Assembly (NCBI GenBank): GCA_035593725.1
Contig: DAOSZN010000008.1
Coordinates: 10,052-74,051, forward strand
Reading direction: 5' to 3'
Length of the DNA stretch: 64,000 nucleotides
From: Bacillota bacterium
GTDB taxonomy: Bacteria; Bacillota; SHA-98; UBA4971
The position numbers and the translations under genes were made by a program. This document shows positions 907 to 16,436 of the stretch, piece after piece (the first letter of the stretch is position 1; each line of letters starts with the position of its first letter). The notes beneath the pieces are model-generated. The model searched no databases. It was not told the origin of the DNA and worked only from the letters and a program-made list of their open reading frames with translations.

Positions 907-1971
907 ATGGATGCCTTTGATAATCAAACTAAACATGACACCTTAATTCATGATAAACCTGACAGCCTGACCCATGATGAAAAATCCCCGGTGCTTGAGA
1001 TTTCAGGGCTTTCAACAGAGTATCCTACTCCCCGAGGGACTGTCCACGCAGTTCGCGGCGTTGATCTCGTCTTGGGGAAAGGCGATATTCTGGCCATTGT
1101 AGGTGAGTCAGGATGCGGCAAGAGCGCATGCCTCCTCTCGATAATGAGACTTGTCCCTCCTCCGGGACGAATTGTCAAAGGGTCTGTCAAGTTTCGAGGC
1201 AAGGAGCTCCTCGCCCTGTCCGAGGCAGAGATGAGGGAGCTGCGAGGAAAAGACATGGCTATGGTCTTTCAAGACCCCATGACTACCTTGAACCCGGCAT
1301 ACCGGGTGGGGGAACAGATCTCCGAGTCGCTTCGTGTTCACAGACTTCTTCCGGGGTTTCCCGGACGCCTCTTGCGCAAAGAGAGAGAGAGGGAGCGGGA
1401 ACGGGTAATAGATCTTCTCAAACAGGTGGGGATACCGTCTCCGGAGCATAGGCACCTCGAGTATCCCCACCAATTCAGCGGTGGGATGCAACAACGTATC
1501 CTCATCGCTATCGCACTTGCGTGTAGACCTAAGGTCATACTTGCTGATGAACCCACCACTGCTTTGGATGTCACGGTCCAGGCGCAAGTGCTTGACTTAA
1601 TGCGGGAAATCAACGAGGAACTTGGAACAGCGATAGTCCTCGTCACTCATGACTTAGGTGTCGCCGCCGAATTCTGTTATAAGGCTGCTGTGATGTACGC
1701 AGGCCAAATTGTCGAGTCCGGAGGGATTGAGGACGTGCTTTCTTCTCCGCTTCATCCTTACACAAGAGGGCTTCTTAAGTCTATTCCCAAGATTGGCCAA
1801 AGACGTGAACTTGTTCCGATAAACGGCGAAGTTCCTGATCTTACCGATCTTTCCGAAGGATGCAGCTTTGCTCCGCGCTGCAGGGAAGCTTACTCATACT
1901 GCGAGCGTACTTCGCCCCCCCTAGTACATTTAAAGAACGGGCGCAAAGTCCGTTGCCATCTTTATACGTAG
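907..1971 (+). CDS. Oligopeptide/dipeptide ABC transporter ATP-binding protein (OppD/DppD type)
   Basis: Walker A GESGCGKS, signature FSGGMQQR, ILADEPTTALDVTVQAQ, C-terminal PLHPYTRGLL..CSFAPRC..RCHL Fe-S extension. Confidence 0.93.
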   Translation: MDAFDNQTKHDTLIHDKPDSLTHDEKSPVLEISGLSTEYPTPRGTVHAVRGVDLVLGKGDILAIVGESGCGKSACLLSIMRLVPPPGRIVKGSVKFRGKELLALSEAEMRELRGKDMAMVFQDPMTTLNPAYRVGEQISESLRVHRLLPGFPGRLLRKERERERERVIDLLKQVGIPSPEHRHLEYPHQFSGGMQQRILIAIALACRPKVILADEPTTALDVTVQAQVLDLMREINEELGTAIVLVTHDLGVAAEFCYKAAVMYAGQIVESGGIEDVLSSPLHPYTRGLLKSIPKIGQRRELVPINGEVPDLTDLSEGCSFAPRCREAYSYCERTSPPLVHLKNGRKVRCHLYT

Positions 1972-2185
1972 GTCCGTATTGTGTGGCTTCCCTCATGCAT
2001 GCATATGCTCGATTAAATCCGGTTGTCCTCGCACATGATATTCATGTCATATCCGGGTTTTCTCATCCGTAGGCTCAATTGAACCAGGCTTGCTTGCGAA
2101 TAATTCCTCAGTTGGGGTAAATCCTAAGAATAGGTCGGCTCTTCCAGGGTCGGCATCCGGATTCGGATCCACTGAAGGAGGAGAT

Positions 2186-3460
2186 ATGATGCATGTGATT
2201 ATGCTTTCGTGGGAGTATCCCCCAAGGGTGGTCGGGGGTATAGCCAGGCATGTGGAGGACCTTGCCAAAGCCCTTGTCAAGCAGGGAGTAGATGTGGACG
2301 TAATTACCTCAGCCCACGACAAGGCTTGCGAAGAAGAAGATGATGAAGGGGTGAAAGTCTTCAGGGTCCCTTTTCAGAGTCCTTCTCCACCTGACTTCAT
2401 CACTTGGGTCATGCAAATGAACCTGAATCTTCTGGAGCGTGGGATTGAACGGGCTGCCACCGGTGCAGATCTCGTGCATGCTCATGATTGGGTGGTTGCG
2501 TACTCCGCGAAAGTCTTAAAACACGCTTTCAATATCCCCCTAGTCGCCACGATTCATGCTACGGAATACGGCCGTAATTGGGGCCTTCATAATGATTTGC
2601 AGCGTTACATCAGTAATGTCGAATGGTGGTTAGGGTTTGAGGCTTGGCGTGTTATATGCTGTAGTCAGCATATGCGTCAAGAGCTGTCGTGGATATTTCA
2701 GCTCCCAGGAGATAAACTGCATGTAATCCCTAACGGAGTCAACCCGGCCCGGTTTGATGTCCCTTCTGACGATGATCCGGCTGCTTTTAGGTTGCAATGG
2801 GCTGCGCCTGATGAGAAATTGGTTTTCTATATCGGCAGACTGGTGCACGAGAAAGGAGTTCACATTCTCCTTGACGCATTTTCGAAGGTGCTCGCATATA
2901 GAGACAAAACCAAGCTGGTAATTGCAGGCAAAGGTCCTGCAGCCGCATACCTCAAGGAACATGCCCATGCCCTGGGAATCTACAACAGGGTATTCTTTGC
3001 CGGGTTCGTTGATGACTTAACCCGCAACAGACTCTACAAATGCTCAGACGTGGCTGTCGTCCCCAGCCTCTATGAACCTTTTGGCATCACTGCGCTGGAA
3101 GCCATGGCTTGCGGGACTCCGGTTGTGGTCTCAGATGTAGGAGGGTTAGGTGAAGTTGTCAGGCATGGAGTTACCGGCATGAAGTGTTATGCAGGTAACC
3201 CAAATTCACTTGCTGACAATATCCTAACCCTTCTTGCAGACGAGAAGCTATGTGACGGGATCCGTGCCAATGCTAAAAATGATGTCCTGACTAAGTTCAA
3301 CTGGGACATAATAGCTAAAGAAACCTCCGAGGTCTATGACGAGGTTCATCAGGCATACAAGGCCGGCCCCTGGGCGGTAACGAGGCCCGGATGGGTCTTT
3401 CAGAGCCGGGAGACTGTCAGGCCGGAGTATTCGCGATACTTCGCCCATGACACTGTGTAG
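2186..3460 (+). CDS. GT4 glycosyltransferase, Rv3032-like putative alpha-1,4-glucosyltransferase
   Basis: N-terminus MLSWEYPPRVVGGIARHV, HAHDW, TIHATEYGR, GT4 acceptor motif PSLYEPFGITALEAMA. ATG at 2186 follows RBS GAAGGAGG (ORF-track start 2090 is too far upstream). Confidence 0.85.
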   Translation: MMHVIMLSWEYPPRVVGGIARHVEDLAKALVKQGVDVDVITSAHDKACEEEDDEGVKVFRVPFQSPSPPDFITWVMQMNLNLLERGIERAATGADLVHAHDWVVAYSAKVLKHAFNIPLVATIHATEYGRNWGLHNDLQRYISNVEWWLGFEAWRVICCSQHMRQELSWIFQLPGDKLHVIPNGVNPARFDVPSDDDPAAFRLQWAAPDEKLVFYIGRLVHEKGVHILLDAFSKVLAYRDKTKLVIAGKGPAAAYLKEHAHALGIYNRVFFAGFVDDLTRNRLYKCSDVAVVPSLYEPFGITALEAMACGTPVVVSDVGGLGEVVRHGVTGMKCYAGNPNSLADNILTLLADEKLCDGIRANAKNDVLTKFNWDIIAKETSEVYDEVHQAYKAGPWAVTRPGWVFQSRETVRPEYSRYFAHDTV

Positions 3461-3481
3461 AAGAACGGAGGCAGGATTCAC

Positions 3482-5962
3482 TTGAAGGCAGTGGTAATGG
3501 CAGGCGGAAAAGGGACGAGACTCAGGCCGCTTACATGTGACAGGCCGAAACCCATGGTTCCGGTGGTAAATCGCCCTATGTTGGAGCATGTCATTGACCT
3601 CCTGAAACTCCACGGGTTTTCGGAGATTTTCGCTACACTCTACTACATGCCTGAAGTCATTCAGGACTATTTCGGCCAAGGAGACAGGTTCGGTGTCACA
3701 ATGCATTACTCTGTCGAGGATACCCCGCTTGGTACAGCAGGAAGCGTCAAAACATGTGAACGCTACCTGGATTCAACCTTTCTTGTAATTTCCGGAGATG
3801 CGCTTACAGATATTCACTTAGGTGAGGCTGTCGAGTTTCACAAGGCCAAAGGTGCAATTGCAACAATTGTCCTCACTCATGTCACAAACCCTCTGGAATA
3901 CGGGGTGGTAATAACTGACGATGACGGGCGTATTACGCGCTTTTTAGAGAAACCCAGTTGGAGTGAGGTATTCAGCGATACTGTAAATACCGGTATTTAT
4001 GTGTTGGAACCCGAGGCGTTACGTCTTTTCGACACAGGACAACAGTTTGACTTCAGCAAGAACCTGTTCCCGCTCATTCTCAAGAAGGGGCTGCCTTTAT
4101 TTGGGTATATCGCTGACGGCTATTGGAGCGATGTGGGGAATATTGAGCAATACCGGAAGACTCACTACGACATTCTCCAAGGGCCGGCTCAGGTGAATAT
4201 TCCCGGAGAAGAAATCGCAAAAGGAATTTACATGGGGACAGGCACTGAAATCCATCCGGATACAAGGCTTGATGCGCCCATTGTAATCGGGGACTTCTGT
4301 CGCATTAGGCGAGGTGCGGAGATTGGGTCAGGCACGATCATCGGACACAACAATATCCTAAGTGAAGGCGTTTCCGTAAAACGAAGTGTTATCTGGGATG
4401 ATTCTTTCTTCGGAAAGGACGCTGAACTGAGAGGCGCTATTGTATGTAGTAAAGCAAGCCTTAAGTCAAAGGCAGCAGTGTTTGAAGGGTCAGTCATCGG
4501 GTCTCGCTGTGTCATAGGGGCGCACTCAATTATCAGGCCCAGTGTGAAGATATGGCCTGAGAAAACAATTGACGCAGGAACTGCCATAACCACGAGTCTG
4601 GTGTGGGGAGCGAAGTGGTCCAAGAGATTGTTCGGTACATACGGAGTCTCAGGCCTCGTTAATGTGGAACTGACCCCGGAAATCGCAGCGAAACTAGGCG
4701 CAGCTTACAGCTCATGCTTCAGGGAAAGGCCACAGGTAGTCGTGAGTTCAGACGCATACAAGCCTTCTCGTATGGTAAAGAGAGCGCTTACATCAGGCCT
4801 CCTCTCCGGTGGAGCAAGCGTCTATGATTTGGGCCGTATGACCACCTCTGTAACCCGTTACGCTGTCACAGCGTTAGGAGTGAGCGGAGGCCTTCACGTG
4901 AGACTCTCGCCATATGACCCGGATATCGTCTTAATCGAATTCCTCGATGATAAGGGTATGAATATCGATAAATCCACAGAACGGAAAATAGAAAACGCGT
5001 TTTTCAGTGAAGACTTTACGAGAGTATGTCCGGATGATATTGGAGAGGTGGCATTTCTTACTCGCCTTGTCGAAGAGTACTTAGATTGTTTGCTCAAAAC
5101 AATATCTGTGGACTTGATAAGGGCAAAGCAATTTCCGGTCGTGGTGGACTACGATCCCGGGAATCTATCCCTGATCCTGCCGTCCTTTCTCTCTGCGTTA
5201 GGTTGCAGGGTATCTGCATCAGACAGGGATAATTCCGGGGATCATGGGCCCAGGCATCTCCTGGATATGCTGGACTCCTTATCATTCCTGGCAAAGTCGG
5301 TAATTGCCAAGCAGGCTGCTCTTGGCATAATCGTTGACAGCAACGCGGAAAGGTTGTTTCTTGTCGATGAGAGGGGAAACAGGGTGTCTGACGACCTATT
5401 TGTAGCCCTCATGTCTCTCGTTGCTTTGAAATCGCAGGAAGGCGCCACTGTGGCAGTGCCGGTTACAGCCTCACGAATCATCGAGGATATGGCCGGAAGC
5501 TACCGTGGACGTGTAATTCGCACCCGGGCAAATCCCAGATCAGTTATGGAAAAAGCCATTGAGGCGAAGATTTTCATAGGCGAAAAGGGCCTTCCCGGGT
5601 TTCAAGCGCCTTTTGACGCGCTCTTCTCTCTTGGGAAAATCCTCGAGACTATGGCAAGGGACGGCATCAGCCTCTCGGAGCTGGTCTCTATGGTTCCTCA
5701 GTTCTATATCAGCAAGCGCAGTGTCAAATGCCCTTGGGAAGCGAAAGGCAAGGTAATGCGCACTTTGATCGATGAGACCCGCACAAAGAAAGTGGAACTC
5801 ATAGACGGTATCAAAGTCTACCATGAGACAGGGTGGGCCTTGGTTTTGCCTGATTCAGAGGAGCCTCTCTTTCACATCTACAGCGAGGCTTCGACTCCGG
5901 ATGAAGCTGAGGCGTTAAGAGAGGCTTACATGAGCCGTATATGCGAAATCGGGCTGATCTAA
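3482..5962 (+). CDS. NDP-sugar pyrophosphorylase (mannose-1-P guanylyltransferase/CugP-like) + left-handed beta-helix + phosphomannomutase-like domain fusion
   Basis: TTG start; AGGKGTRLRPLT..PKPMVP, FLEKP, hexapeptide repeats, then LFGTYGVSGLVNVELTPE..GAAY (PMM domain I) and C-terminal DGIKVYHETGWALVLPDSEEPLFHIYSEA. Confidence 0.88.
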   Translation: MKAVVMAGGKGTRLRPLTCDRPKPMVPVVNRPMLEHVIDLLKLHGFSEIFATLYYMPEVIQDYFGQGDRFGVTMHYSVEDTPLGTAGSVKTCERYLDSTFLVISGDALTDIHLGEAVEFHKAKGAIATIVLTHVTNPLEYGVVITDDDGRITRFLEKPSWSEVFSDTVNTGIYVLEPEALRLFDTGQQFDFSKNLFPLILKKGLPLFGYIADGYWSDVGNIEQYRKTHYDILQGPAQVNIPGEEIAKGIYMGTGTEIHPDTRLDAPIVIGDFCRIRRGAEIGSGTIIGHNNILSEGVSVKRSVIWDDSFFGKDAELRGAIVCSKASLKSKAAVFEGSVIGSRCVIGAHSIIRPSVKIWPEKTIDAGTAITTSLVWGAKWSKRLFGTYGVSGLVNVELTPEIAAKLGAAYSSCFRERPQVVVSSDAYKPSRMVKRALTSGLLSGGASVYDLGRMTTSVTRYAVTALGVSGGLHVRLSPYDPDIVLIEFLDDKGMNIDKSTERKIENAFFSEDFTRVCPDDIGEVAFLTRLVEEYLDCLLKTISVDLIRAKQFPVVVDYDPGNLSLILPSFLSALGCRVSASDRDNSGDHGPRHLLDMLDSLSFLAKSVIAKQAALGIIVDSNAERLFLVDERGNRVSDDLFVALMSLVALKSQEGATVAVPVTASRIIEDMAGSYRGRVIRTRANPRSVMEKAIEAKIFIGEKGLPGFQAPFDALFSLGKILETMARDGISLSELVSMVPQFYISKRSVKCPWEAKGKVMRTLIDETRTKKVELIDGIKVYHETGWALVLPDSEEPLFHIYSEASTPDEAEALREAYMSRICEIGLI

Positions 5963-5965
5963 ATC

Positions 5966-7558
5966 CTAAGCCTTAGCATATACTTGGTAGTCTATCTCAG
6001 GGAAAATGTTGTTCCTTGCTTCAATATCTGAAAGCCAGCTTTCGTCAATAGACTCCCGCCGGATATCCTCATAGAGTTTCGTGAACCGCCACAAGTGTTC
6101 TTTAGTACGCCTGACTGCGTACGGGACTACGGTCCCTGTCTTCATGATGAATGCCCAGTCGCTGCTCTGAGCTAGGAGCAACTCGCGGGCTGCCTGATTT
6201 AAGGCTCGTCTCCTCAGGCCGTCTGAGTCCGGGTAGGCTTTGGCAAGTTCCGTCATTCTCTCCGCTGCTTTATGAAGATGACGGTAAATCCAGTCGTTGG
6301 AACCTTCAAGCCAGACCTCATTGTAGCCTTTATATCCCCAACTTGAAAGGGACGGTGTAGAGACTTGGTTGCGAGTGTATACGTTTAGATAGTCGCTTGG
6401 TGTAACTAACTTGAACACGTTCTGGTCGTAAGTCGCCTTTCTTATCAAGTAATCAAGCCACTCCGGTCCTTCGAACCACCAATGTCCAAAGAGCTCAGCA
6501 TCGTAAGGTGCGACTACAATGGGTTTTCTATCCATTACAGATGCCAGGTATTCGATTTGCCTCTCTCTGTTGAACATGAAGTTCCCTGCGTGGATTGCAG
6601 CTTTTCTTAAGGCACGTCCCCTGTCATAAGGTTGTTTGTCATGGGTTTTCCCGGTAATCCTGTGGTATTTTATCCCTGTGCCGATACGGGTTCCGCTTGG
6701 GTGTATGTATGGTTTTATGTAGTCGTAATCCAAGTCATAACCTATATCCCGATAGAATTCCCGGTAATCGTAATCCCCCGGATATCCCTCTCGTGCGCTC
6801 CATACTTGCTTGGATGATTCCATGTCCCTACCGAAGGAGGCCACACCTGACTTGCAGTATATCGGCGCGAACACTCCGTACTTAGGTTGAGGCGACGCGA
6901 AAAGCACTCCGTGAGCGTCCAATATGAAATATCTTATACCTTCCTGCTTCAAGTATTCATCATCACCCGGATTGAAACCGCATTCAGCAAGCCAGAAGCC
7001 TTGAGAATTGCGGTGAAAAGTTTGTCTGTGGTAGTCGGCTGCTATCTTTACCTGGGCACGCACCGCTTCGCGGGATATCTCCATAAGCGGAAGGTATCCA
7101 TGGGTTGCGCAAGAAGTAATAATTTCCAGGCATCCCTTGTCCTGAAGCGCGGTAAATGCAGTGATTAGGTCGCATTGGTATTCATCTTGGAATATACGTC
7201 TTGCTTCACGGAACTTCTCCAGGTACATTTTGGCGTTCTCATTGAATTCCGGGAGCCAGCGGGTTCGTTCAACTTCTCTTTCCGCAAGCTCGATAAGGCG
7301 TTCTATGTGGCGGAGATACCGCTCCTTGAGGAGGGAGTCCTGAAGCATGGACGAAAGGGGCGGGGTGAGGGACATTGTTATTCGAAATTTTATTCCCTCA
7401 TCAGCCAGGCGGTTGAATACTTTTATGAGAGGAATGTACGTTTCTGTAATGGCTTCATAAAGCCAGGTTTCCTCAAAGAAATCAGAATGCTCAGGGTGTC
7501 TCACATACGGCAAGTGCGCATGAAGGATAAGGGCAAGATAGCCTTTTTCATCTCCCAT
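5966..7558 (-). CDS. GH57 (DUF1957) 1,4-alpha-glucan branching enzyme, short-loop AmyC-like subtype
   Basis: LILHAHLPYV, ATHGYLPL, nucleophile WLAECGF, acid/base APYDAELFGHWWFEG, ELLLAQSSDWAF. Confidence 0.92.
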   Translation of the reverse strand: MGDEKGYLALILHAHLPYVRHPEHSDFFEETWLYEAITETYIPLIKVFNRLADEGIKFRITMSLTPPLSSMLQDSLLKERYLRHIERLIELAEREVERTRWLPEFNENAKMYLEKFREARRIFQDEYQCDLITAFTALQDKGCLEIITSCATHGYLPLMEISREAVRAQVKIAADYHRQTFHRNSQGFWLAECGFNPGDDEYLKQEGIRYFILDAHGVLFASPQPKYGVFAPIYCKSGVASFGRDMESSKQVWSAREGYPGDYDYREFYRDIGYDLDYDYIKPYIHPSGTRIGTGIKYHRITGKTHDKQPYDRGRALRKAAIHAGNFMFNRERQIEYLASVMDRKPIVVAPYDAELFGHWWFEGPEWLDYLIRKATYDQNVFKLVTPSDYLNVYTRNQVSTPSLSSWGYKGYNEVWLEGSNDWIYRHLHKAAERMTELAKAYPDSDGLRRRALNQAARELLLAQSSDWAFIMKTGTVVPYAVRRTKEHLWRFTKLYEDIRRESIDESWLSDIEARNNIFPEIDYQVYAKA

Positions 7559-7580
7559 GTCGAAAACTCATCTCCTTTTG

Positions 7581-8540
7581 CTACCAAGTGCTACGGGCAA
7601 GTCTGGTAGTGACGGAGCTGCGCATAGAGGCATCCTTTGACACTGCCTGAATATCTATGATTTGCTCCCCGTCAGGCAGGGCGTACCTTACATGAAAAGT
7701 ACCGTCCGGACGAAGTTTGACAGGCCGCCCGGAAATGGTAAGATCTGCGTCAGGTAAAGTGGCGCCGTGGATTATCACTTCCACAAATGCGTTTAACCAA
7801 AACTTTTGAGGCTGTGCTCTTTGCCCCATTTGAGGACTGGATATCTCACTTACGAATTCAGAGCCTATTTCCAAGTGCATCCGCTCGGATATTTCGGAAA
7901 CCATCTCAGGGGATGCCGGAAGGCCGGTAGACAGAGGATAGTACCTCTCTATTGCTGAAAGTGTCATCCATTCTTCATCAATGACTTCAGACATGCCGGC
8001 TCTGGGGGTTTTGACTACGTTTGACTTTGACAAGCAAAGGAAGCGGCCGTCTTGTCCAATAAGTCCGAGCTCTGCACAGTAAGATCTGTTAGGCCGATCA
8101 ACGTTTATATACCAGTTTTTGGCATGTTCGCCAATGTCAATGCTCATAGTCTTATGTGCGTTGCTTCCGTCAAATTCGATATCAGTCACATCATGCACCC
8201 GGAGAGCCTTTTTGGAAGTCAGCCATCCTTCCGGTCCCAACGCCATGGTTACCATGTCTGAAATGTCTTCCGCGATTTCCCAGTATGCGTGTATCCAATA
8301 TGGATCCCGCACCATAAGGACTATTTGGGTTGAGCCATATCTCTGAGGAAGCTCATATTGGCTGTCCCATGCATATCCAGGAGCTTCTTGATATTGAATA
8401 GGAGCTTCACCTACGTGTAATTCGCGAGTCTCAATGATTTGAATCTCAGGGACGACCTCTGAAACATGGATTTCCACCGCCTCAGAGGGGCCGGCGCCTT
8501 GACTGAGACTGTTTTCTGTCGTTTTTTCAGAATTTTGCAA
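7581..8540 (-). CDS. DUF4912 domain-containing protein
   Basis: Core LPQRYGSTQIVLMVRDPYWIHAYWEI...WYINV..PNRSYCAELG; C-terminal Ig-like GATLPDADLTISGRPVKLRPDGTF; typical neighbour of GH57 genes; TTG start after GGGGAGG. Confidence 0.8.
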   Translation of the reverse strand: MQNSEKTTENSLSQGAGPSEAVEIHVSEVVPEIQIIETRELHVGEAPIQYQEAPGYAWDSQYELPQRYGSTQIVLMVRDPYWIHAYWEIAEDISDMVTMALGPEGWLTSKKALRVHDVTDIEFDGSNAHKTMSIDIGEHAKNWYINVDRPNRSYCAELGLIGQDGRFLCLSKSNVVKTPRAGMSEVIDEEWMTLSAIERYYPLSTGLPASPEMVSEISERMHLEIGSEFVSEISSPQMGQRAQPQKFWLNAFVEVIIHGATLPDADLTISGRPVKLRPDGTFHVRYALPDGEQIIDIQAVSKDASMRSSVTTRLARSTW

Positions 8541-8736
8541 TCAGGTTACCTCCCCACTGAATCGTGTGGGCATTATCATGTGGAGGCCTCTGTAATAATA
8601 TCTCTACTGCTGTGAAGGTTTATACCATCGGAATACTGTTTGCTCGTATGACTTACACTAAATGTACTCGATTTTGGAAGAGATCGCCTAAATTGAGTAA
8701 GGAGAAATCCAGTGACAGCGCAAGGGGGGCATCTTT

Positions 8737-10386
8737 ATGTCAATTGGGTCATTTGTGCTTGTTCTCCATAGCCATCTGCCGTATTGCAGAAAGGCAGGGG
8801 TATGGCCTTTTGGCGAAGAGTGGGTTTTTGAGGCAATGGCGGAAACGTATATTCCACTTCTTGATATCATAGACCACCTGGCTGAGAAGAACGTCTCAGG
8901 AAGCTTTACAGTAGGGTTTACACCGGTGCTGTTGGATCAATTACAAGATCCGTACATGCTGCTTCGGTTTGACGAGTATCTTGAGACTAAGATTGCTACA
9001 GCGGAAGCTGACATTCTAAGATTCGGAGCCGAGAGTGAATGGAGTCTTCAAGAGCTTGCCAAGTTTTACAGGGATCGCTATGAAAGGGTCAGAGACAGTT
9101 TTTACCTTCGACACAACAGAAACCTGGTGAACGCCTTCAAGGCCTTTCAGGATAGGGGGTTGATAGAGATCCTGGCAGGAGCGGCGACTCATGCATATTT
9201 ACCGCTCCTTGCCACTGACACTTCTATTTATTCTCAGCTCAAGCTTGGATATGATGTTTACAATTACAGTTTCGGACGTCCTCCTCAAGGAATATGGCTG
9301 CCGGAGTGCGGATATCGTCCCCCGTCAGAGTCATCAAGTGTTGACAGGGCTCTAAAGGAACTTGGATATTCTTGCTTCTTCGTGGACGCGCACGCTATTG
9401 AAGGTGGAGCACCGATAGACGTATACTCAGACAGGATCTTGAAAAAGCCGGAAGTGCGATCTGCTACCGCAAAGCGGGATTATACCTCTTACCTTCCGTA
9501 CTTGGTTTCCGGTAGTAACATCGCAGTTCTTGGGCGAAATCAACGCACCGCATTGCAGGTATGGTCCTCAGAATGGGGTTATCCGGGTGACGGCAATTAT
9601 CGGGAGTTTCATAGGCGAGATCCAATTTCCGGTTTCAGTTATTGGAAAGTCACAAGTCGATTGGTGGATATCTCCGCGAAGGAAGTATACCAACCTGAAG
9701 CCGCTCTTTGTCGGGCTAAGGAGCATGCTGATCACTTTGTGAACTTAGTGGAACGGCTCCTTTTGGATTTCAACTCAGAAACCGGAAAACGAGGAGTAAT
9801 CGTAGCGCCATTTGACGTAGAATTGTTCGGACACTGGTGGATGGAAGGTCTTGACTGGTTGAAGTGGGCATTGGAAGGCCTCAGCAAGAGTCCCTATGTA
9901 GAAGTCGTTTCCGCTTCGGATTGCCTGGAGAGATACCCGCCAAATGAAGAGATCGACTTGCTGGAAAGTTCATGGGGTCTTGGGGGAGGCCACTATGTCT
10001 GGGACAATGATCAAACCAACTGGATGTGGCAAGAAATCCACAGTGCCGAAAAGGAAATTGAAGACATGGTATTGAAAACAGGCCATAGAAACCGACAAGG
10101 AGAAGATAACGCTTCGCTTAGAGCCAGACTTCTAAAGCAGGTAGCCCGTGAGGCGTTGCTGCTTCAGAGCAGTGATTGGCCGTTTCTTGTTACTACGGAA
10201 CAAGCTAGGGATTACGGTGAGAGGAGATTCCTCGAACATAAGCATAGATTTGAGAGGCTTACCCATGCTTTGGCCAAGGACCCAATACCCCCTGACATCG
10301 TGAGCTACCTGGAGCAACTTGAGTCTATTGACGCAGTATTCCCTAAGATTGATTTCACCGCTTTCATGGGAAAGCAGGGATTCTGA
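8737..10386 (+). CDS. GH57 (DUF1957) 1,4-alpha-glucan branching enzyme, long-loop TK1436-like subtype
   Basis: LVLHSHLPY, AATHAYLPL, WLPECGY, APFDVELFGHWWMEG, LLLQSSDWPF. Confidence 0.92.
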   Translation: MSIGSFVLVLHSHLPYCRKAGVWPFGEEWVFEAMAETYIPLLDIIDHLAEKNVSGSFTVGFTPVLLDQLQDPYMLLRFDEYLETKIATAEADILRFGAESEWSLQELAKFYRDRYERVRDSFYLRHNRNLVNAFKAFQDRGLIEILAGAATHAYLPLLATDTSIYSQLKLGYDVYNYSFGRPPQGIWLPECGYRPPSESSSVDRALKELGYSCFFVDAHAIEGGAPIDVYSDRILKKPEVRSATAKRDYTSYLPYLVSGSNIAVLGRNQRTALQVWSSEWGYPGDGNYREFHRRDPISGFSYWKVTSRLVDISAKEVYQPEAALCRAKEHADHFVNLVERLLLDFNSETGKRGVIVAPFDVELFGHWWMEGLDWLKWALEGLSKSPYVEVVSASDCLERYPPNEEIDLLESSWGLGGGHYVWDNDQTNWMWQEIHSAEKEIEDMVLKTGHRNRQGEDNASLRARLLKQVAREALLLQSSDWPFLVTTEQARDYGERRFLEHKHRFERLTHALAKDPIPPDIVSYLEQLESIDAVFPKIDFTAFMGKQGF

Positions 10387-10483
10387 GGTAAATGTTGAAT
10401 CTCTTCGCCTGAGGTGATGTTCCGGGGTTCAGTATAGTACTGTCTCCGGTTGTGACCGAAGGATCGAGGAGGATAATAAATAA

Positions 10484-11209
10484 ATGAAACTTGTGGCAGA
10501 TCTCCACACTCATTCCGTAGCAAGCGGACATGCATATTGCACCATTAATGAAATGGCTCAGGCTGCAGCTGAAAAAGGGCTCAAAATGATTGCAATTACC
10601 GACCATGGGCCTAACATGCCGGGCGGTCCTCATTTTTATTACTTCGGTAATTTGCGTATAGTTCCTTCTGTGATTGCCGGAGTTCAAGTGCTAAAAGGCA
10701 TTGAAGCGAATATAGTCGGCTTGTCAGGTGAACTTGATTTACCCGATCATATGCTGGAGAAACTGGATATTGTGTTTGCAGGGTTCCACACTCATACCGG
10801 TTATGAAGGTGACGGGGTTTCCGAAAATACCGGGGCAATGATAGGCGCCTTGGAAAATCCCTATGTAGACGGTATTGTGCACCCTGGGAATCCGATTTTT
10901 CCGGTGGACATCGCTGAGGTGGTTACTGCCGCTTCTGACCTTGGTAAACTCATAGAAATCAATAACGCGTCTCTTACTGTCACCAGATTAGAGAGTATGG
11001 AAAACTGCGTGAATTTTGCGGAACTTGCAGCGGAATATGGCGCAAGAGTTGTAATTGGAAGTGATGCTCATCATACTTCTTTGGTAGGCAGTTTTGACAG
11101 CGCAATTGAACTCGTGAAAAGAGCGGGCGTTAAGAGCGAATATGTGCTTAACACAGATGTCAGCAAGATAACTGAATTCCTCGATAAGAGAAGGAAGGCG
11201 CTGAGGTAA
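10484..11209 (+). CDS. PHP-domain phosphatase (YcdX-like)
   Basis: DLHTHS, ITDHG, GIEAN, HPGNP, EINNAS, GSDAH metal motifs. Confidence 0.85.
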   Translation: MKLVADLHTHSVASGHAYCTINEMAQAAAEKGLKMIAITDHGPNMPGGPHFYYFGNLRIVPSVIAGVQVLKGIEANIVGLSGELDLPDHMLEKLDIVFAGFHTHTGYEGDGVSENTGAMIGALENPYVDGIVHPGNPIFPVDIAEVVTAASDLGKLIEINNASLTVTRLESMENCVNFAELAAEYGARVVIGSDAHHTSLVGSFDSAIELVKRAGVKSEYVLNTDVSKITEFLDKRRKALR

Positions 11210-11212
11210 GAC

Positions 11213-12217
11213 ATGGGGCTTGTCATTGCAATAGACGCAGGCGGCACTAAAACAGACTGTCTAATCGGCACAACACAAGGGGAAATTCTTGCGAAATCAG
11301 TGTCCGGTCCTGCCAATTACCAGTTGGTAGGCATAGACGGCGTGCTTCGGGTCATAAGCGAACTGCTCCGTGCAACGGACGATTATTGGTCCCATGAAAG
11401 GCACGGATTTGAAGTCATGTGGATAGGTATTGCAGGGGTGGATAGGCCCGGAGAGCGGGAGCAGGTGGCTATGTCTCTTCGAAATCTGGGAGCTGCAAGT
11501 AAGGTCATAGTGGATAATGATGCGATGATCGCTCTTGCCAGCGGGACAATGGGCAAGCCGGGAATCGTGGTCATTGCAGGCACAGGCTCAATAGCGTTCG
11601 GAGTCAACGGAGAAGGAAAGCGGACAAGGGCCGGGGGTTGGGGATATATCCTAGGGGATGAAGGCAGCGCCTATTATATTGGACATTCTGCCCTTAACCA
11701 GGTTACACGAGCTCAAGACGGCCGTGGGCAACCTACTTTGCTGGCTCAGGCAATCATTGACCATTTCGGTATAGATAGTATAGACGGGTTGGTAGGGTTG
11801 GCGTACACCGGCAAACTGGATAGAATTGATATTGCGGGCCTTTCACCGCTCGTGGCAGAAGCAGCAAAAGAGGGAGATGAAACAGCCTGTCGGATACTGG
11901 ATTCGGCAGGTGCTGAACTTGGGATTGCAGCAGGCGCAGTGGCAAAGGCTCTCAACATGGAAAGGTCGGCGTTCCCGTGTGTTACTACAGGCGGGGTCTT
12001 TAAGTCAGGTAAGGCGGTTACGTACGCGCTTATGAGAGAATTGGCGAAGGTGGCTCCCATGTCACACCTTGTTGAGCCTGAGTTTCCTCCTGTTGTCGGC
12101 GCCTATTTTATGGGTATCCGCGAACTCGGGCAGGAGATTGATGAGGATGTAAGAGAACGCGCAAGAACTTCACTGGCAGGACTCAAGTTTTCCGCTTCTT
12201 GCTTGGAGGAGGATTAA
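11213..12217 (+). CDS. BadF/BadG/BcrA/BcrD-family sugar kinase, probable N-acetylglucosamine kinase
   Basis: IDAGGTKT, GPANYQ, NDAMIAL, IAGTGS, RAGGWGYILGDEGS; directly upstream of nagA-nagB. Confidence 0.85.
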   Translation: MGLVIAIDAGGTKTDCLIGTTQGEILAKSVSGPANYQLVGIDGVLRVISELLRATDDYWSHERHGFEVMWIGIAGVDRPGEREQVAMSLRNLGAASKVIVDNDAMIALASGTMGKPGIVVIAGTGSIAFGVNGEGKRTRAGGWGYILGDEGSAYYIGHSALNQVTRAQDGRGQPTLLAQAIIDHFGIDSIDGLVGLAYTGKLDRIDIAGLSPLVAEAAKEGDETACRILDSAGAELGIAAGAVAKALNMERSAFPCVTTGGVFKSGKAVTYALMRELAKVAPMSHLVEPEFPPVVGAYFMGIRELGQEIDEDVRERARTSLAGLKFSASCLEED

Positions 12218-12219
12218 TC

Positions 12220-13428
12220 ATGATAATAAAAGGCGCTGACATACTGACTCCGCAAGGCATGATCCAATCCGGAATTCTCGTAATAGAAGACGGTATCATA
12301 GCAAGAATCAGTCCTTTTGGCGACGCAGGTTTTGACACCGGGCTTCCATGTAAACATGAGCCTCGGCATGAAGTTATTGACGGGACCGGTCTAACGCTTG
12401 TCCCTGGGTTTATTGATATTCATTCCCATGGCGGAGGAGGGTGTGATACTTTAGACGGAACTTATGACTCACAGGAGAGGATGTGTCTCTCTCATGCTGC
12501 ACACGGTACCACCGGAATCCTTCCAACGACAATGTCAGCTCCGTTTGAAACCCTTCTTCAGGTGTCAGAATTAATCGGTCACGCAATAGAAACTAATGTC
12601 CTCGACGGCGCTAAGATTCTAGGGCTTCACCTTGAAGGGCCGTGGCTTAATCCGGAATTCAAAGGCGCTCAGTCGATAACAGGTATACGCAGGCCTTCCA
12701 TAGAAGAACTGGACGCGCTTATCAAGGCGTCCTCCGGAAATATCAGGATGATTACTGTGGCACCGGAGATGCCGGGGGCCCTGGATCTTATCAAGCATGC
12801 AGCGGATTCCGGGATCAAAGTCTCTCTCGGACACTCATCCGCCACGTATGAGCAGGTTATTCAAGCCGTTCAAGCCGGCGCCACCCATGTCACCCACGCC
12901 TATAATGCCATGAGCGGTCTGCATCACAGATGTCCCGGAATGGTTGGGGCAATGCTTTCGTGTGATAAGCTTACTGCGGATGTGATCCTTGATGGGTTTC
13001 ATCTTCACTGTGCTGCTGCCAAGATACTTATGAAGTGTAAAGGGAAGGATAGGCTTGCCTTGATAACAGATGCCACAATGGCTGCCGGTATGCCCAACGG
13101 TCGGTATGAATTGGGTGGACAGGAGGTTATCTTCCGTGACGGAGCAGTCAGGCTTCCTTGTGGCAATCTTGCAGGATCCGCCCTTACATTGGATAACGCA
13201 GTGAAATATGCTGTCCTAAAACTTGGGTGTTCGTTGGAGGATGCTATCACCATGGTTTCGGAAACTCCTGCCAAAATAATCGGCATGTATGACAAGAAGG
13301 GCAGCATCGAAGCAGGCAAAGATGCGGATCTCGTTCTTCTTGACGCGTCCTTACAGGTAAAGGCAACCATTGTAAGCGGCAATTTGGTATACATGTCAGA
13401 AGTCAAAGACGATTCACGAAAGGCTTAA
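12220..13428 (+). CDS. nagA: N-acetylglucosamine-6-phosphate deacetylase
   Basis: PGFIDIHSHG, HLEGPWLN, THAYNAM, DGFH, LITDA, LAGS; ATG 12220 after GGAGGAGG. Confidence 0.95.
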   Translation: MIIKGADILTPQGMIQSGILVIEDGIIARISPFGDAGFDTGLPCKHEPRHEVIDGTGLTLVPGFIDIHSHGGGGCDTLDGTYDSQERMCLSHAAHGTTGILPTTMSAPFETLLQVSELIGHAIETNVLDGAKILGLHLEGPWLNPEFKGAQSITGIRRPSIEELDALIKASSGNIRMITVAPEMPGALDLIKHAADSGIKVSLGHSSATYEQVIQAVQAGATHVTHAYNAMSGLHHRCPGMVGAMLSCDKLTADVILDGFHLHCAAAKILMKCKGKDRLALITDATMAAGMPNGRYELGGQEVIFRDGAVRLPCGNLAGSALTLDNAVKYAVLKLGCSLEDAITMVSETPAKIIGMYDKKGSIEAGKDADLVLLDASLQVKATIVSGNLVYMSEVKDDSRKA

Positions 13429-13450
13429 AGAGGTAAGAGGAGGCGAGAAT

Positions 13451-14233
13451 GTGAAAGTAATAGTTGCAGATGACTATGGGATGATGAGTAAAGAGGCCGC
13501 TGAGATTGTGGCTGCGGAGATAAGAAAAAAGCCTGACTGTGTTTTGGCATTACCTACAGGCGGAACCCCGTTGGGCTTGTATGCGGAACTGGTCAGGATG
13601 CACAAAGAAGAAGGGTTGGATTTTTCTTGTGTTTTTGCGTTTAACCTTGATGAGTACATAGGCCTTCCTGAGGATCACGAATCAAGCTACAACTTCTATA
13701 TGCATGACAGGCTTTTCAATCATGTGAATATAAGCAGAGACCGGATCCGTATCCCTTGCGGGCTTGCAGAAGATCCTGAGGAGGAGGCAGCAGCATACGA
13801 ATGGGCGATCAAAAGGGCGGGAGGCATTGATCTTGCTGTGCTTGGGATAGGGCGTAATGGACATATCGGCTTTAACGAGCCAAGGACGGAATTCGGATCC
13901 CTTACCCGTCCTATTTATCTTGCTAAGAGGACTATTGAAGCTAACGCAAGGTTCTTTCAAGAGAATCCTGATGCTGTGCCGAGGCGGGCTATTTCCATGG
14001 GGATCCGAACGATAATGAATTCCAGGAAGATTATTCTATTAGCCAGTGGAGTAGAGAAGTCGCATGCCGTTAATCAGACTGTGCACGGTCCGGTAACCGA
14101 GATGGTTCCCAGTTCAGTGTTGCAGCTTCATCCTGATTGCACTTTGATTTTGGACAAAGACGCTGCTTCTGAACTGGAGCCTTCGCCCAATGGTTTCATC
14201 CCGGGACCGGGAATAAAGACTATGGTATACTAG
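13451..14233 (+). CDS. nagB: Glucosamine-6-phosphate deaminase
   Basis: LPTGGTP, FNLDEY, LGIGRNGHIGFNEP, AISMGIRTIM, PSSVLQLHP. Confidence 0.96.
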   Translation: MKVIVADDYGMMSKEAAEIVAAEIRKKPDCVLALPTGGTPLGLYAELVRMHKEEGLDFSCVFAFNLDEYIGLPEDHESSYNFYMHDRLFNHVNISRDRIRIPCGLAEDPEEEAAAYEWAIKRAGGIDLAVLGIGRNGHIGFNEPRTEFGSLTRPIYLAKRTIEANARFFQENPDAVPRRAISMGIRTIMNSRKIILLASGVEKSHAVNQTVHGPVTEMVPSSVLQLHPDCTLILDKDAASELEPSPNGFIPGPGIKTMVY

Positions 14234-14305
14234 GTACATTGACCTGGAGTTTTTATCCCGGATCACGCCAGACTGAAAGTCGGCAAGAAGCGGGGGCTTT
14301 AAACA

Positions 14306-15187
14306 TTGTACGAAGAGCGATTTGTGATAATCACAGGGCTTTCAGGCGCAGGCAAGAGTGAGGCAGTGCGTGCGTTTGAGGATCTTGGCTTTTTTTGTGT
14401 GGATAATCTCCCGCCGACATTGATCCCGAAATTTGCTGAACTTACGGCACAATCAGAAGGAAAGATTGATAAGATAGCTTTAGTAGTAGATATAAGGAGT
14501 CGCGAGTTTTTCGATAAACTGCTTACTGCATTGGATTCCCTTGAAGAAATGGGCGTCGAGTATGAGATCTTGTTCCTTGAGGCATCTGATGAGGTCCTTG
14601 TGCGGAGGTTTAAAGAAACTCGCAGACGTCATCCTCTTTCTGCGGAAGGCGGCATTATCGAAGGAATCTGTGAAGAACGTCGAAAACTCGACGAGATTCG
14701 AAAAAGGGCTTCCCGTATCATAGATACATCAAATATTACTCCTAAACAGCTTCGTGAAAGAATAGCAGGAAGCTTCGTGAGATTGAATCCGAAGAAGGGG
14801 ATTGATATCATTGTCGTGTCCTTTGGGTTTAAGCATGGTATCCCCATAGACGCTGATCTGGTTTTTGATGTAAGATTTCTGCCAAACCCTCATTATGTGG
14901 AGGCTTTACGTCCGCTTACCGGGGAATCGGAGGCTGTCATGGAGTATGTGTTCCGTTCCCGGGTGACCGGATCATTTTTGCATAAGCTTTTTGACCTTAT
15001 GACGTTTCTTTTGCCACAGTACACAAAGGAAGGTAAGACTCAACTGATAATAGGAATAGGATGTACCGGGGGAAGACACCGTTCAGTCGCTATTGCAAAT
15101 CGCCTTGCCGACTTCTTGACGGATCAAGGATACAATGTGACAGTGGAACATCGGGACAAGGATATTCCTGAAAGACTGGCTGAGTAG
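14306..15187 (+). CDS. rapZ: RNase adapter / nucleotide-binding protein RapZ (YvcJ)
   Basis: [47 protein letters not shown]. Confidence 0.96.
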
Positions 15188-15200
15188 GAGAGATGGCGTA

Positions 15201-16436
15201 ATGATAGCTGTCAGCAGGTTATATCCTCACTTGGATCTGAAAAAGTGGTCTTTTATATTCTCAGTGGGAGTGGCGCTTGCTGTGGTCGGCGCCATATCTC
15301 TTTCAAAGGGATGGATGCCCGGTCTTGCTGTAAGCCTTATCGGTATAGGGATGGTTGCGTTTTCTGCTGTAATGGCATTCAGGTTATTGGTCAGAACTCT
15401 GGCGCCGGAATACGGAGATCGTGTTGTGCAGGCTTTGCACAGGCGGTATGAGCTTGGGCGCGGCCCCAAAATAGTGGTGGTGGGCGGGGGCACCGGTTTA
15501 TCTACCCTGCTTAGAGGCTTGAAAGAGTTTACCGGCAACCTGACTGCCATAGTGACAGTGGCTGATGACGGAGGGAGTTCAGGTAGGCTCAGAAGAGAGA
15601 TGGGAGTGCTCCCCCCGGGTGATATCCGCGACTGCTTGGTGGCGTTAGCAGATTCCGAGCCTCTTATGGCCCGTCTTTTCGAGTACAGATTTCCGGAAGG
15701 CGATCCCACAGGTCTGGGGGGCCATGCTTTTGGGAATCTCTTTATCGCGACTATGTCCGCTATTACCGGTGATTTCGATGAAGCAGTAAAAGAATCCAGT
15801 CGGGTTTTGGCAGTGCGAGGTCGTGTGCTTCCGTCCACTCTGGAGAATGTGGCCCTTGTTGCCCAGTGTCAAGGGGGTCAGGTGGTATGTGGGGAATCTA
15901 CAATTGGCAGATGCTCGACACGTATTGAGAAGGTGTTCCTTAAGCCTGCAAATCCCAGGGCGCTTCCTGAGGCTCTTGAAAGTATTGCTGAGGCAGATGC
16001 GATAGTCTTGGGTCCGGGGAGCCTGTTTACCAGCGTGATTCCTAACTTGCTCGTTGAAGGGATTGCAGACGCTATTCGGGAGAGTCGGGCGCCAAGGATA
16101 TATGTATGCAATGTCATGACTCAACCGGGAGAGACTGACTGCTTCACTGCCGCGGATCATGTGGAAGCTATCATAGATCATGCAGGGAGAGGAATTATCG
16201 ACTATGTGCTGGTAAACACAGGCGGTGTGCCCGAGAAGCTAGCAGGAAAATACAGTCAGGAAGGGGCCTATCCGGTTGACATTGACAGAGATAGGCTTTG
16301 GTCTCTTGGAATCACAACTATAGAAGAGGATCTCATTTCTAATACGGACTATGCCAGGCACGATCCGTTCCGCCTCGCTGAAGCTGTGCTAAGGATTACC
16401 TCAATGGCAGGCAAACATTTAAGAATGAAGGCTTAA
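15201..16436 (+). CDS. yvcK: YvcK/GlmR gluconeogenesis and morphogenesis factor with N-terminal transmembrane segments
   Basis: GGGTGLS, VTVADDGGSSG, PPGDIR, GPGSLFTSVIPNL, NVMTQPGET; two hydrophobic helices at N-terminus. Confidence 0.95.
   Translation: MIAVSRLYPHLDLKKWSFIFSVGVALAVVGAISLSKGWMPGLAVSLIGIGMVAFSAVMAFRLLVRTLAPEYGDRVVQALHRRYELGRGPKIVVVGGGTGLSTLLRGLKEFTGNLTAIVTVADDGGSSGRLRREMGVLPPGDIRDCLVALADSEPLMARLFEYRFPEGDPTGLGGHAFGNLFIATMSAITGDFDEAVKESSRVLAVRGRVLPSTLENVALVAQCQGGQVVCGESTIGRCSTRIEKVFLKPANPRALPEALESIAEADAIVLGPGSLFTSVIPNLLVEGIADAIRESRAPRIYVCNVMTQPGETDCFTAADHVEAIIDHAGRGIIDYVLVNTGGVPEKLAGKYSQEGAYPVDIDRDRLWSLGITTIEEDLISNTDYARHDPFRLAEAVLRITSMAGKHLRMKA

Follow-up and report, generated by a model that had tools for sequence, protein, structure and literature searches.

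Which enzymes would build a glycogen-like polymer in a bacterium whose genome shows neither a true glgC gene nor a glgB gene of the usual kind? This question is raised by a group of five genes at positions 2186 to 10386 of a 64,000-nucleotide stretch of DNA (the window) from a Bacillota bacterium, which lies on a contig (DAOSZN010000008.1 of assembly GCA_035593725.1; here C27) of a 2.4-Mb metagenome-assembled genome (MAG) that is 95% complete. The genes encode a family 4 glycosyltransferase (GT4), a nucleoside diphosphate (NDP)-sugar pyrophosphorylase fusion, two proteins of glycoside hydrolase family 57 (GH57a and GH57b), and a DUF4912 protein. On the combined evidence of domain content, gene order, and conserved residues, we consider the cluster likely to be an intracellular module for the synthesis of a glycogen-like α-glucan, with a non-orthologous replacement for each classical enzyme.

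Several observations carry this assignment. The GT4 and the pyrophosphorylase are tied to α-glucan synthesis, and to GH57a and DUF4912, by a GH57-GT4 fusion and by a four-gene operon that recurs among relatives. The same tie is drawn by starch-binding neighbors, by the pairing of the pyrophosphorylase elsewhere with glgA, the gene for the classical family 5 (GT5) glycogen synthase, and by the lineage-wide lack of glgC and glgB. The domain content and the intact catalytic residues of both GH57 proteins lend further support.

Organization and conservation of the cluster

An earlier annotation made without database searches (the sequence-only reading) had claimed five clustered genes, and all five are found where it placed them, exactly within 2186-10386 according to open reading frame listing and family scans. 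The GT4 gene (2186-3460, + strand; 424 amino acids [aa]) begins with an ATG at 2186, a TTG at 2090 being the alternative, and its product matches Pfam Glyco_transf_4 and Glycos_transf_1, with an N-terminal match to Glyco_transf_5. Only 21 nucleotides (nt) separate it from the fusion gene on the same strand (3482-5962; 826 aa), in which NTP_transferase, left-handed β-helix, and PGM_PMM I-III domains are recognized. Convergent with the latter, the stop codons being 3 nt apart, is the gene for GH57a (5966-7558, - strand; 530 aa), a GH57 protein with a BE_C domain that family scans and a match to PDB 2b5d assign to the type of Thermotoga maritima AmyC. The DUF4912 gene (7581-8540, - strand; 319 aa; Pfam PF16258 at 137.7 bits, gathering cutoff 29.4) lies 22 nt upstream of it, and a 196-nt spacer separates the DUF4912 gene from the divergent gene for GH57b (8737-10386, + strand; 549 aa), which family scans and PDB matches identify as a GH57 protein with BE_C and a long loop. 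The family scans detected no glgC, GT5 glgA, or family 13 (GH13) glgB inside the cluster.

In eight related MAG contigs (L019 and L022-L028), all five genes are arranged and oriented as in the window, at 57 to 92% protein identity; four truncated contigs keep part of the cluster, and the complete complement is also present in two other families (L104 and L111). Because the five genes recur in this way, the grouping is not a matter of chance; the cluster is real, and its submodules are conserved far more widely.

Distribution of the module across the phylum

When the fusion was called present at E ≤ 1e-160 in 401 sampled genomes of the phylum, it was found in 167 of them, and many genomes hold two copies. 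Gene neighborhoods were then compared in 40 loci from about 37 families, centered on the fusion gene. The GT4 gene lies immediately 5' of the fusion gene and is codirectional with it in 34 of the 40. In three further loci (L120, L123, and L128), GH57a and GT4 form a single protein of 944 to 970 aa with GH57, BE_C, and GT4 domains. The genomes concerned (G064, G015, and G323) form one clade, and the fused gene has a short DUF4912 gene on its 5' side and the pyrophosphorylase gene on its 3' side, such that all four parts are contained in one operon. DUF4912 and GH57a genes occur together within 8.5 kb in 27 of the 40 loci. Stand-alone CBM53/CBM25 starch-binding proteins are encoded in 16, beside the GT4 where this was checked, and GH15-like genes and genes for Glucodextran_C proteins are found in seven loci each.

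The classical synthase can also share a locus with the module. A galT-like gene and a GT5 glgA are present in five of the 40 loci and directly abut the module in four. Outside Bacillota, two loci (L098 and L062, from Saganbacteria and another, unclassified MAG) have, in this order, genes for a galT-like protein, DUF4912, GH57a, the pyrophosphorylase fusion, and a GT5 glgA; this gene order places the fusion beside glgA and so links it to the supply of a glycogen synthase.

Across the 401 genomes, GT5 glgA is present in 115 and absent from 52 of those with the fusion, and present in 92 and absent from 142 of those without it. The 52 genomes with the fusion and no GT5 glgA include two assembled as single contigs (G124 and G165), and in three of the 52 (G003, G008, and G009) glgC and glgB are missing as well. 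In these 52 genomes, about one-third of those that carry the module, it is the only candidate for α-glucan synthesis found among the families searched.

Glycogen genes elsewhere in the genome

The sequence-only reading had described a self-contained pathway without glgC, glgA, or glgB. The cluster itself contains none of the three, and the genome lacks two of them. No match in the genome reaches the cutoff of the glgC model TIGR02091, the top matches being the fusion proteins themselves, and no GH13 branching enzyme was found, the three GH13 proteins detected being of amylase or cyclomaltodextrinase types. Since a classical GT5 glgA is present on contig C30, the description overstates the case at genome level. 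Self-containment does not hold here either, as both this glgA and a paralogous set on contig C19 coexist with the cluster, but it does hold in the 52 of 167 fusion-bearing genomes that have no GT5 glgA and no other candidate among the families searched.

That glgC and glgB are missing is a property of the lineage. Neither gene was found in any of 22 sampled genomes of the same class, so an assembly gap is not the explanation. Two of 31 relatives, both more distant, have glgC or glgB, and each has both.

The paralogous set (C19:43479-49086) encodes a GT4 (49.5% identical to that of the window), a long-loop GH57 (46.7% identical to GH57b), and a pyrophosphorylase fusion (44%), with no DUF4912. 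A galT-like gene, for a HIT-family hexose-1-phosphate nucleotidyltransferase, occurs on C30 (178188-180770 for the pair with GT5 glgA) and in eight sampled loci (L049, L060, L062, L098, L106, L117, L118, and L133), where it stands directly 5' of GT5 glgA or, in candidate phyla, directly 5' of DUF4912; a GT35 α-glucan phosphorylase and an intact phosphoglucomutase/phosphomannomutase (PGM/PMM) are encoded near the C30 pair. Judged from this gene order, the galT-like protein could be a second route of NDP-glucose supply in a lineage without glgC, perhaps like ADP-glucose phosphorylase. Contig C30 also has genes for two stand-alone CBM53/CBM25-like starch-binding proteins of about 107 to 149 aa (192165-192614, + strand, and 199229-199552, - strand).

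None of the three GH13 proteins scores as GlgE, which was thus not found in this genome. One of them is encoded in the window (31961-33244, + strand); it has 427 aa and no signal peptide, is closest in the PDB to 3dhu and 4gkl (maltose-forming amylase type), scores about 73 bits as GlgE, and is probably an intracellular α-glucan-degrading enzyme. The other two score best as a cyclomaltodextrinase/maltodextrin glucosidase and as an α-amylase. A true TIGR02149 (GlgM-type) GT4 is nevertheless encoded at C2:94558-95733 (534 bits).

The glycosyltransferase and its relation to Rv3032

The N terminus of the GT4 carries the starch-synthase-like motif SWEYPPRVVGGIARHV, which the sequence-only reading had likened to Mycobacterium tuberculosis Rv3032. 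An Rv3032 sequence, which served solely as a query, matched a record named "transferase [Mycobacterium tuberculosis]" (P0241) at 100% identity, and we take this record to be Rv3032. Its alignment with the window GT4 spans 395 aa, the N-terminal motif included, and shows 35% identity (222 bits, E value 1e-72). In this genome, Rv3032 matches the window GT4 (226 bits) better than the C19 paralogue (192 bits) or the TIGR02149-type GT4 (135 bits), and the two proteins are reciprocal best hits over their full length at 35 to 37% identity. The N-terminal resemblance is thus confirmed, as is a second claim, that Rv3032 has a GH57 neighbor. In Mycobacterium malmoense, the gene for an orthologue 90% identical to Rv3032 (L139) follows those for a methyltransferase and a GH57 protein with BE_C and adjoins the latter, an order that agrees with the published Rv3030-Rv3032 arrangement. 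The corresponding distance varies in the present lineage, the GT4 lying two genes from a GH57 gene with BE_C in the window, adjoining one in the C19 set, and being fused to one in L120, L123, and L128.

In a maximum-likelihood tree, the window GT4, the C19 GT4, and 37 pyrophosphorylase-linked GT4s form one clade (support 91/93), which is not placed as sister to Rv3032. Comparison with Rv3032 and other GT4 subfamilies therefore upholds homology and the reciprocal best hit, while a subfamily shared exclusively with Rv3032 is not established by these alignments. The best NCBIfam model, TIGR02149, scores 186.3 bits, below its cutoff of 302.4. GT4 relatives about 55% identical occur in Desulfotomaculum, Desulfofarcimen, and Pelotomaculum; the closest named relatives are uncultured Bacillota of anaerobic digesters. 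From its sequence relationships we propose the GT4 as a putative α-1,4-glucan synthase, a distant homologue of the Rv3032 kind.

A pyrophosphorylase fused to an inactive mutase-like module

The fusion protein consists of NTP_transferase (aa 2 to 233), a left-handed β-helix (about aa 248 to 370), and a degenerate phosphohexomutase-like module (aa 382 to 819). Its N-terminal half, a nucleotidyltransferase followed by a β-helix, has the layout of GlgC and scores below every curated cutoff, including that of TIGR02091 (104.5 bits; cutoff 424.9). The C-terminal half matches PGM_PMM_I and II above the Pfam cutoffs and III just below, and it matches the archaeal GlmM model at 278 bits over aa 382 to 819 (cutoff 439).

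The mutase motifs were compared first with those of three ordinary mutases encoded by this genome and then across an alignment of 55 fusion proteins. The ordinary mutases retain all four motifs (Ser-His-Asn-Pro, DxDxDR, GExSGH, and RxSxT); in the fusions, the catalytic motifs are lost in every one of the 55. The catalytic serine persists in 30, yet the histidine after it is found in none; the second metal-binding aspartate of the DxDxDR loop is kept in five, the GExSGH sugar loop is largely deleted, and the arginine, serine, and threonine of the phosphate loop (RxSxT) are absent throughout. A bifunctional mutase and pyrophosphorylase is rejected on account of this loss. The residues that replace the motifs are themselves conserved, for example as L-P-D-x-E-E-P. 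Because the defining motifs are gone, we read the mutase-like half as a non-catalytic module, apparently still under selection, which may sense sugar phosphates or act as a scaffold. The fusion as a whole is proposed as a candidate replacement for GlgC.

Two types of GH57 protein

The match of GH57a to T. maritima AmyC (PDB 2b5d; 545 bits) runs from end to end (residues 5 to 529 against 2 to 525). GH57a retains the catalytic residues E192 and D353, the latter inside the fingerprint YDAELFGHWW, as well as the fingerprint HAHLP. It is 54 to 72% identical to its counterparts in other families of the phylum and 60 to 69% in other phyla. GH57b, with catalytic E190 and D360 and the fingerprints HSHLP and FDVELFGHWW (the latter containing D360), is closest to characterized archaeal and Thermus branching enzymes (PDB 5wu7, 438 bits; 3n8t, 436; 3p0b, 377) and scores 520 bits against the Thermococcales branching-enzyme model, below the cutoff of 1000. 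Outside the family, it is present in only three of the 40 sampled loci.

Segment lengths served to assign classes, following the structural scheme of Xiang et al. 2021 (PMC9291813). The reference glycogen branching enzyme (GBE) of Pyrococcus horikoshii has both a loop and a β5-β6 insertion, with a β5-β6 segment of 35 aa and a loop region of 41 aa. AmyC and GH57a have identical lengths (19 and 31 aa) and neither element. GH57b (24 and 51 aa) has a long loop and no full β5-β6 insertion, and the C19 GH57 (19 and 53 aa) a long loop and no insertion. By these lengths, neither GH57a nor GH57b has the 17- to 22-aa loop or the β5-β6 insertion of a true GBE, the loop of GH57b, of about 29 aa and containing a tyrosine, falling outside the range. 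The loopless class makes up about 92% of annotated GH57 "branching enzymes," and its tested members show about 10 mU/mg on amylose; the class with a loop and no β5-β6 insertion makes up 2.7%, with a Meiothermus enzyme of 29 mU/mg and an inactive Thermosyntropha enzyme (PMC9291813).

DUF4912 as a constant neighbor of GH57a

A 40-sequence DUF4912 profile, applied to one genome per species, yielded 80 loci with more than 10 phylum-level labels, among them Bacillota, Omnitrophota, Nitrospirota, Planctomycetota, Verrucomicrobiota, Elusimicrobiota, Margulisiibacteriota, Saganbacteria, Poribacteria, Thermodesulfobacteriota, Firestonebacteria, and others. Of these loci, 72 had room downstream, and in 70 of them a GH57a-type gene, whose product is 60 to 92% identical to the window copy, follows 3' of DUF4912 on the same strand within 400 nt. 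The independent sample centered on the pyrophosphorylase gave the same picture, DUF4912 adjoining GH57a in all 27 loci that hold GH57a.

An AlphaFold2 model of the window protein (mean predicted local distance difference test score 70; above 87 in both domains) shows a disordered N terminus and two β-sandwiches, at about aa 67 to 182 and aa 250 to 319, joined by a disordered linker. Foldseek comparison of the model with the PDB returned only generic fibronectin type III- or immunoglobulin-like β-sandwiches (TM-score at most 0.7 on single domains) and no functional assignment. The invariant residues are rich in tryptophan and tyrosine, which suggests a surface suited to binding carbohydrate or protein, and we propose DUF4912 as a non-catalytic partner of GH57a. 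The literature searched contained no paper on DUF4912 function, the two papers that mention the family being unrelated.

A profile search of 1.84 billion representatives matched 5,975 cluster representatives at E ≤ 1e-10, which makes the family a large one. Of the best 150 matches, ten of the longest were inspected, and none of these is a fusion of DUF4912 to GH57; what they have is an extended N terminus, a Rho_N domain, DUF4912 in tandem copies, or a periplasmic-binding-protein-like domain. Two giant members, P0406 (1541 aa) and P0420 (1471 aa), contain 6 to 10 tandem DUF4912 domains, one of them with the binding-protein-like domain at its N terminus; the DUF4912 core is thus a module that can be repeated. 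The family is also matched in the control genomes of T. maritima and Synechococcus elongatus. AmyC was always assayed without DUF4912, a protein that no published assay has included.

Alternative explanations

The assignment to glycogen-like synthesis has to be set against several points that weigh in the other direction, in addition to the status of the genome as a MAG. The GT5 glgA at C30:179283-180770 (584 bits; TIGR02095 cutoff 328) could make glycogen without the GT4. Within the PDB, the GT4 is about equally distant from GlgM (6tvp, the best match; 111 bits), sucrose-phosphate synthase (103 bits), and MshA (103 bits), and in the maximum-likelihood tree, which includes few outgroups, a long branch leads to the Rv3032 clade, which forms a three-way split with two other GT4s of the genome. 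Rv3032 itself is linked to methylglucose lipopolysaccharide (MGLP) and not to bulk glycogen (PMC6629080, PMC9291813). For the fusion, the named family that scores highest is mannose-1-phosphate guanylyltransferase (243 bits, below the cutoff of 440). By their segment lengths, GH57a and GH57b both belong to classes that branch amylose poorly (about 10 to 30 mU/mg) or not at all in vitro, and it has been proposed that enzymes of both classes may not be glycogen branching enzymes (PMC9291813). Since both classes show low or no branching on amylose, this step of the pathway is one that we infer. The earlier claim of a branching step gains from the intact catalytic residues and from the lack of any other branching enzyme in the class, and it is weakened by the class membership of both GH57 proteins.

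These points allow other accounts of the cluster, the main one being that it makes a specialized small α-1,4-glucan, such as an MGLP-like oligosaccharide or a primer, with bulk glycogen coming from the galT-like/GT5 glgA pair. The closest characterized relatives, Rv3032 and Rv3031, are assigned to MGLP synthesis (PMC9291813, PMC6629080), all three GH57 proteins of the genome fall into classes nearly inactive on amylose (PMC9291813), and GT4 and GT5 genes occur together in 115 genomes, sometimes adjoining (L106, L115, and L133; about 6 kb apart in L118), a coexistence that suggests non-redundant roles. We nevertheless think this account doubtful, as no methyltransferase, acyltransferase, or glucosylglycerate-synthesis gene recurs around the 40 loci among the most frequent families inspected, the CBM53 starch-binding neighbors point to a polymer, and 52 genomes hold the module without GT5 glgA. 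A purely catabolic role for GH57a and DUF4912, as an intracellular amylase system that merely neighbors the synthase pair, would recall the original description of AmyC, a high proportion of whose activity is hydrolytic (PMC6616209; Table 3 of PMC9291813), and in other phyla the DUF4912-GH57a pair is mostly found alone, with no synthase genes within 10 kb. The fusion of GH57a to GT4 in three genomes, the position of the pair within synthase operons in L062 and L098, and the lack of another branching enzyme in a class that does have GT5 glgA make such a role quite unlikely.

The covalent GH57-GT4 fusion also tells against a product other than glucan, as do the recurrence of the four-gene operon, the frequency of CBM53 neighbors, the proximity of the pyrophosphorylase to GT5 glgA in other phyla, and the largely mutually exclusive occurrence of the module and glgC/glgB in the 31 relatives, where the fusion is missing from one of the two genomes that have glgC and glgB and is matched only weakly in the other. 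It could otherwise be supposed that a GDP-mannose-dependent glycan, sucrose phosphate, trehalose, or a glycosylglycerate is formed and that the nearby GH57 genes reflect a loose grouping of carbohydrate genes, given that the nucleotidyltransferase scores best against a guanylyltransferase model and that GT4 enzymes are functionally diverse, with sucrose-phosphate synthase and MshA matching about as well as GlgM; we regard this as about as improbable as the catabolic role. The match to GlgM, both in the PDB (6tvp) and through TIGR02149 (the Corynebacterium/Mycobacterium "GlgA," now GlgM), might further suggest that the GT4 is a maltose-1-phosphate synthase feeding a GlgE-like maltosyltransferase. 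With a score far under the TIGR02149 cutoff, a true member of that family elsewhere in the genome, and no GlgE found among its three GH13 proteins, this is the least likely of all, and we reject it.

A proposed pathway

With glycogen-like synthesis as the preferred assignment, a sequence of steps can be put forward. A separate, intact phosphoglucomutase encoded elsewhere in the genome would provide glucose-1-phosphate, from which the N-terminal nucleotidyltransferase of the 826-aa fusion may form NDP-glucose in the role of GlgC; the specificity for sugar and for nucleotide is here inferred. The catalytically dead mutase-like half would probably be a regulatory or ligand-binding module. The co-transcribed GT4 could then build α-1,4 chains from NDP-glucose in the role of GlgA, giving a polymer of presumably glycogen-like structure. 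These chains may be remodeled or branched by the AmyC-type GH57a, with DUF4912, its obligate neighbor and a two-β-sandwich protein, probably binding the glucan or, if there is contact between the two, the enzyme. In this lineage, the loop-bearing GH57b would act on the chains as well, such that both GH57 proteins together could take the place of GlgB.

It can be speculated more widely, and more tentatively, that the GT4, the pyrophosphorylase with its pseudo-mutase sensor, GH57a, and DUF4912 constitute a distinct and widespread glycogen pathway in which DUF4912 supplies the missing non-catalytic subunit for the activation or targeting of loopless GH57 enzymes. We see this as a possibility that falls somewhat short of an even chance. 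If DUF4912 were that subunit, it would explain why the loopless class is nearly inactive when assayed alone.

The sequence-only reading had also suggested a sporulation-linked or envelope glucan, for which no support was obtained. No hydrophobic stretch resembling a signal peptide was seen in the five N termini, which were inspected by eye with no predictor run. A promoter and terminator scan of positions 1900 to 10600 gave match counts at the level of shuffled sequence and is therefore silent on sigma factors and sporulation control.

Neighboring genes and contig labels

The genes 3' of the cluster (10484-16436) encode a PHP phosphatase, a BadF-type (NagK-like) sugar kinase, NagA, and NagB; rapZ and yvcK come next. 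All appear to be unrelated neighbors, although the rapZ-yvcK pair was seen again beside the glucan cluster in several relatives. One contig with the full five-gene cluster (L027; 63 to 79% identity to the window) is labeled Betaproteobacteria, and another, labeled Bacteroidota (L061), has a DUF4912-GH57a pair (39% and 68% identity) resembling those of Bacillota MAGs. Both phylum labels probably come from mis-binned contigs.

Comparison with known systems

The nearest described system is the mycobacterial Rv3030-Rv3031-Rv3032 locus (methyltransferase, GH57, and GT4; the "Rv3032 pathway" of MGLP synthesis). Its GT4 shares the motif SWEYPP..(I/V)GG..RHV and likewise adjoins a GH57 protein with BE_C and without the β5-β6 insertion (PMC9291813). 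The present cluster differs in having no methyltransferase and in adding a pyrophosphorylase fusion, DUF4912, and a second type of GH57. The mycobacterial GH57 is closer to GH57b (243 bits) and to the C19 copy (238 bits) than to GH57a (161 bits), and no exclusive common ancestry of the GT4s emerges from the tree. Archaeal glycogen clusters in Methanoculleus and Picrophilus also have a GT4 gene among GH57 and other glycogen genes; its role is said in a 2024 review to need clarification, it being "tempting to speculate" that it is an uncharacterized glycogen synthase (PMC11046441). Compared by description only, these clusters are not reported to include a pyrophosphorylase fusion, DUF4912, or a GH57-GT4 fusion. 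In the literature searched, the idea of a GT4/GH57 pathway was met only for the Rv3032 locus and in that speculation on archaeal genes, and no description was found of the pyrophosphorylase fusion, the DUF4912-GH57 pairing, the GH57-GT4 fusion, or the cluster as a whole.

T. maritima AmyC (TM1438, PDB 2b5d) has the same loopless architecture and segment lengths as GH57a. Described as a GH57 α-amylase, it was later recognized to be a branching enzyme that is also highly hydrolytic (PMC6616209, PMC9291813). It was characterized alone, whereas the GH57a type is accompanied by a DUF4912 gene in 70 of 72 loci. The role of most GH57 "branching enzymes" has been stated to be unknown, and they may belong to pathways yet to be identified (PMC9291813). 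The present analysis places a loopless GH57 in one operon, and sometimes in one polypeptide, with a putative GT4 synthase, together with a dedicated NDP-sugar pyrophosphorylase and the uncharacterized partner DUF4912.

In comparison with the classical GlgC-GlgA-GlgB pathway, the proposed module would follow the same three-step logic of NDP-glucose formation, α-1,4 elongation, and α-1,6 branching, and its pyrophosphorylase has the GlgC layout of nucleotidyltransferase and β-helix. It differs in using a GT4 and not a GT5, a GH57 and not a GH13 enzyme, and a pyrophosphorylase that scores 104 bits against a glgC cutoff of 425. CugP, a cyanobacterial non-GalU UDP-glucose pyrophosphorylase annotated as mannose-1-phosphate guanylyltransferase, had been cited as a precedent for the last of these. 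Going by its general description, it too joins a nucleotidyltransferase to a β-helix, and in the fusion, as in CugP, the automatic name may hide activity on glucose-1-phosphate; unlike the fusion, CugP has, to our knowledge, no phosphohexomutase-like extension. The classical pathway has no equivalent of the dead phosphohexomutase-like module or of DUF4912; the former may act as an allosteric sensor on the GlgC replacement. Glycogen capacity is probably under-called in the many Bacillota and candidate phyla without glgC, glgA, and glgB. What is new relative to all of these systems is the pairing of DUF4912 with GH57a across more than 10 phylum-level groups and the prospect of glycogen synthesis with three enzymes replaced and two non-catalytic parts added.

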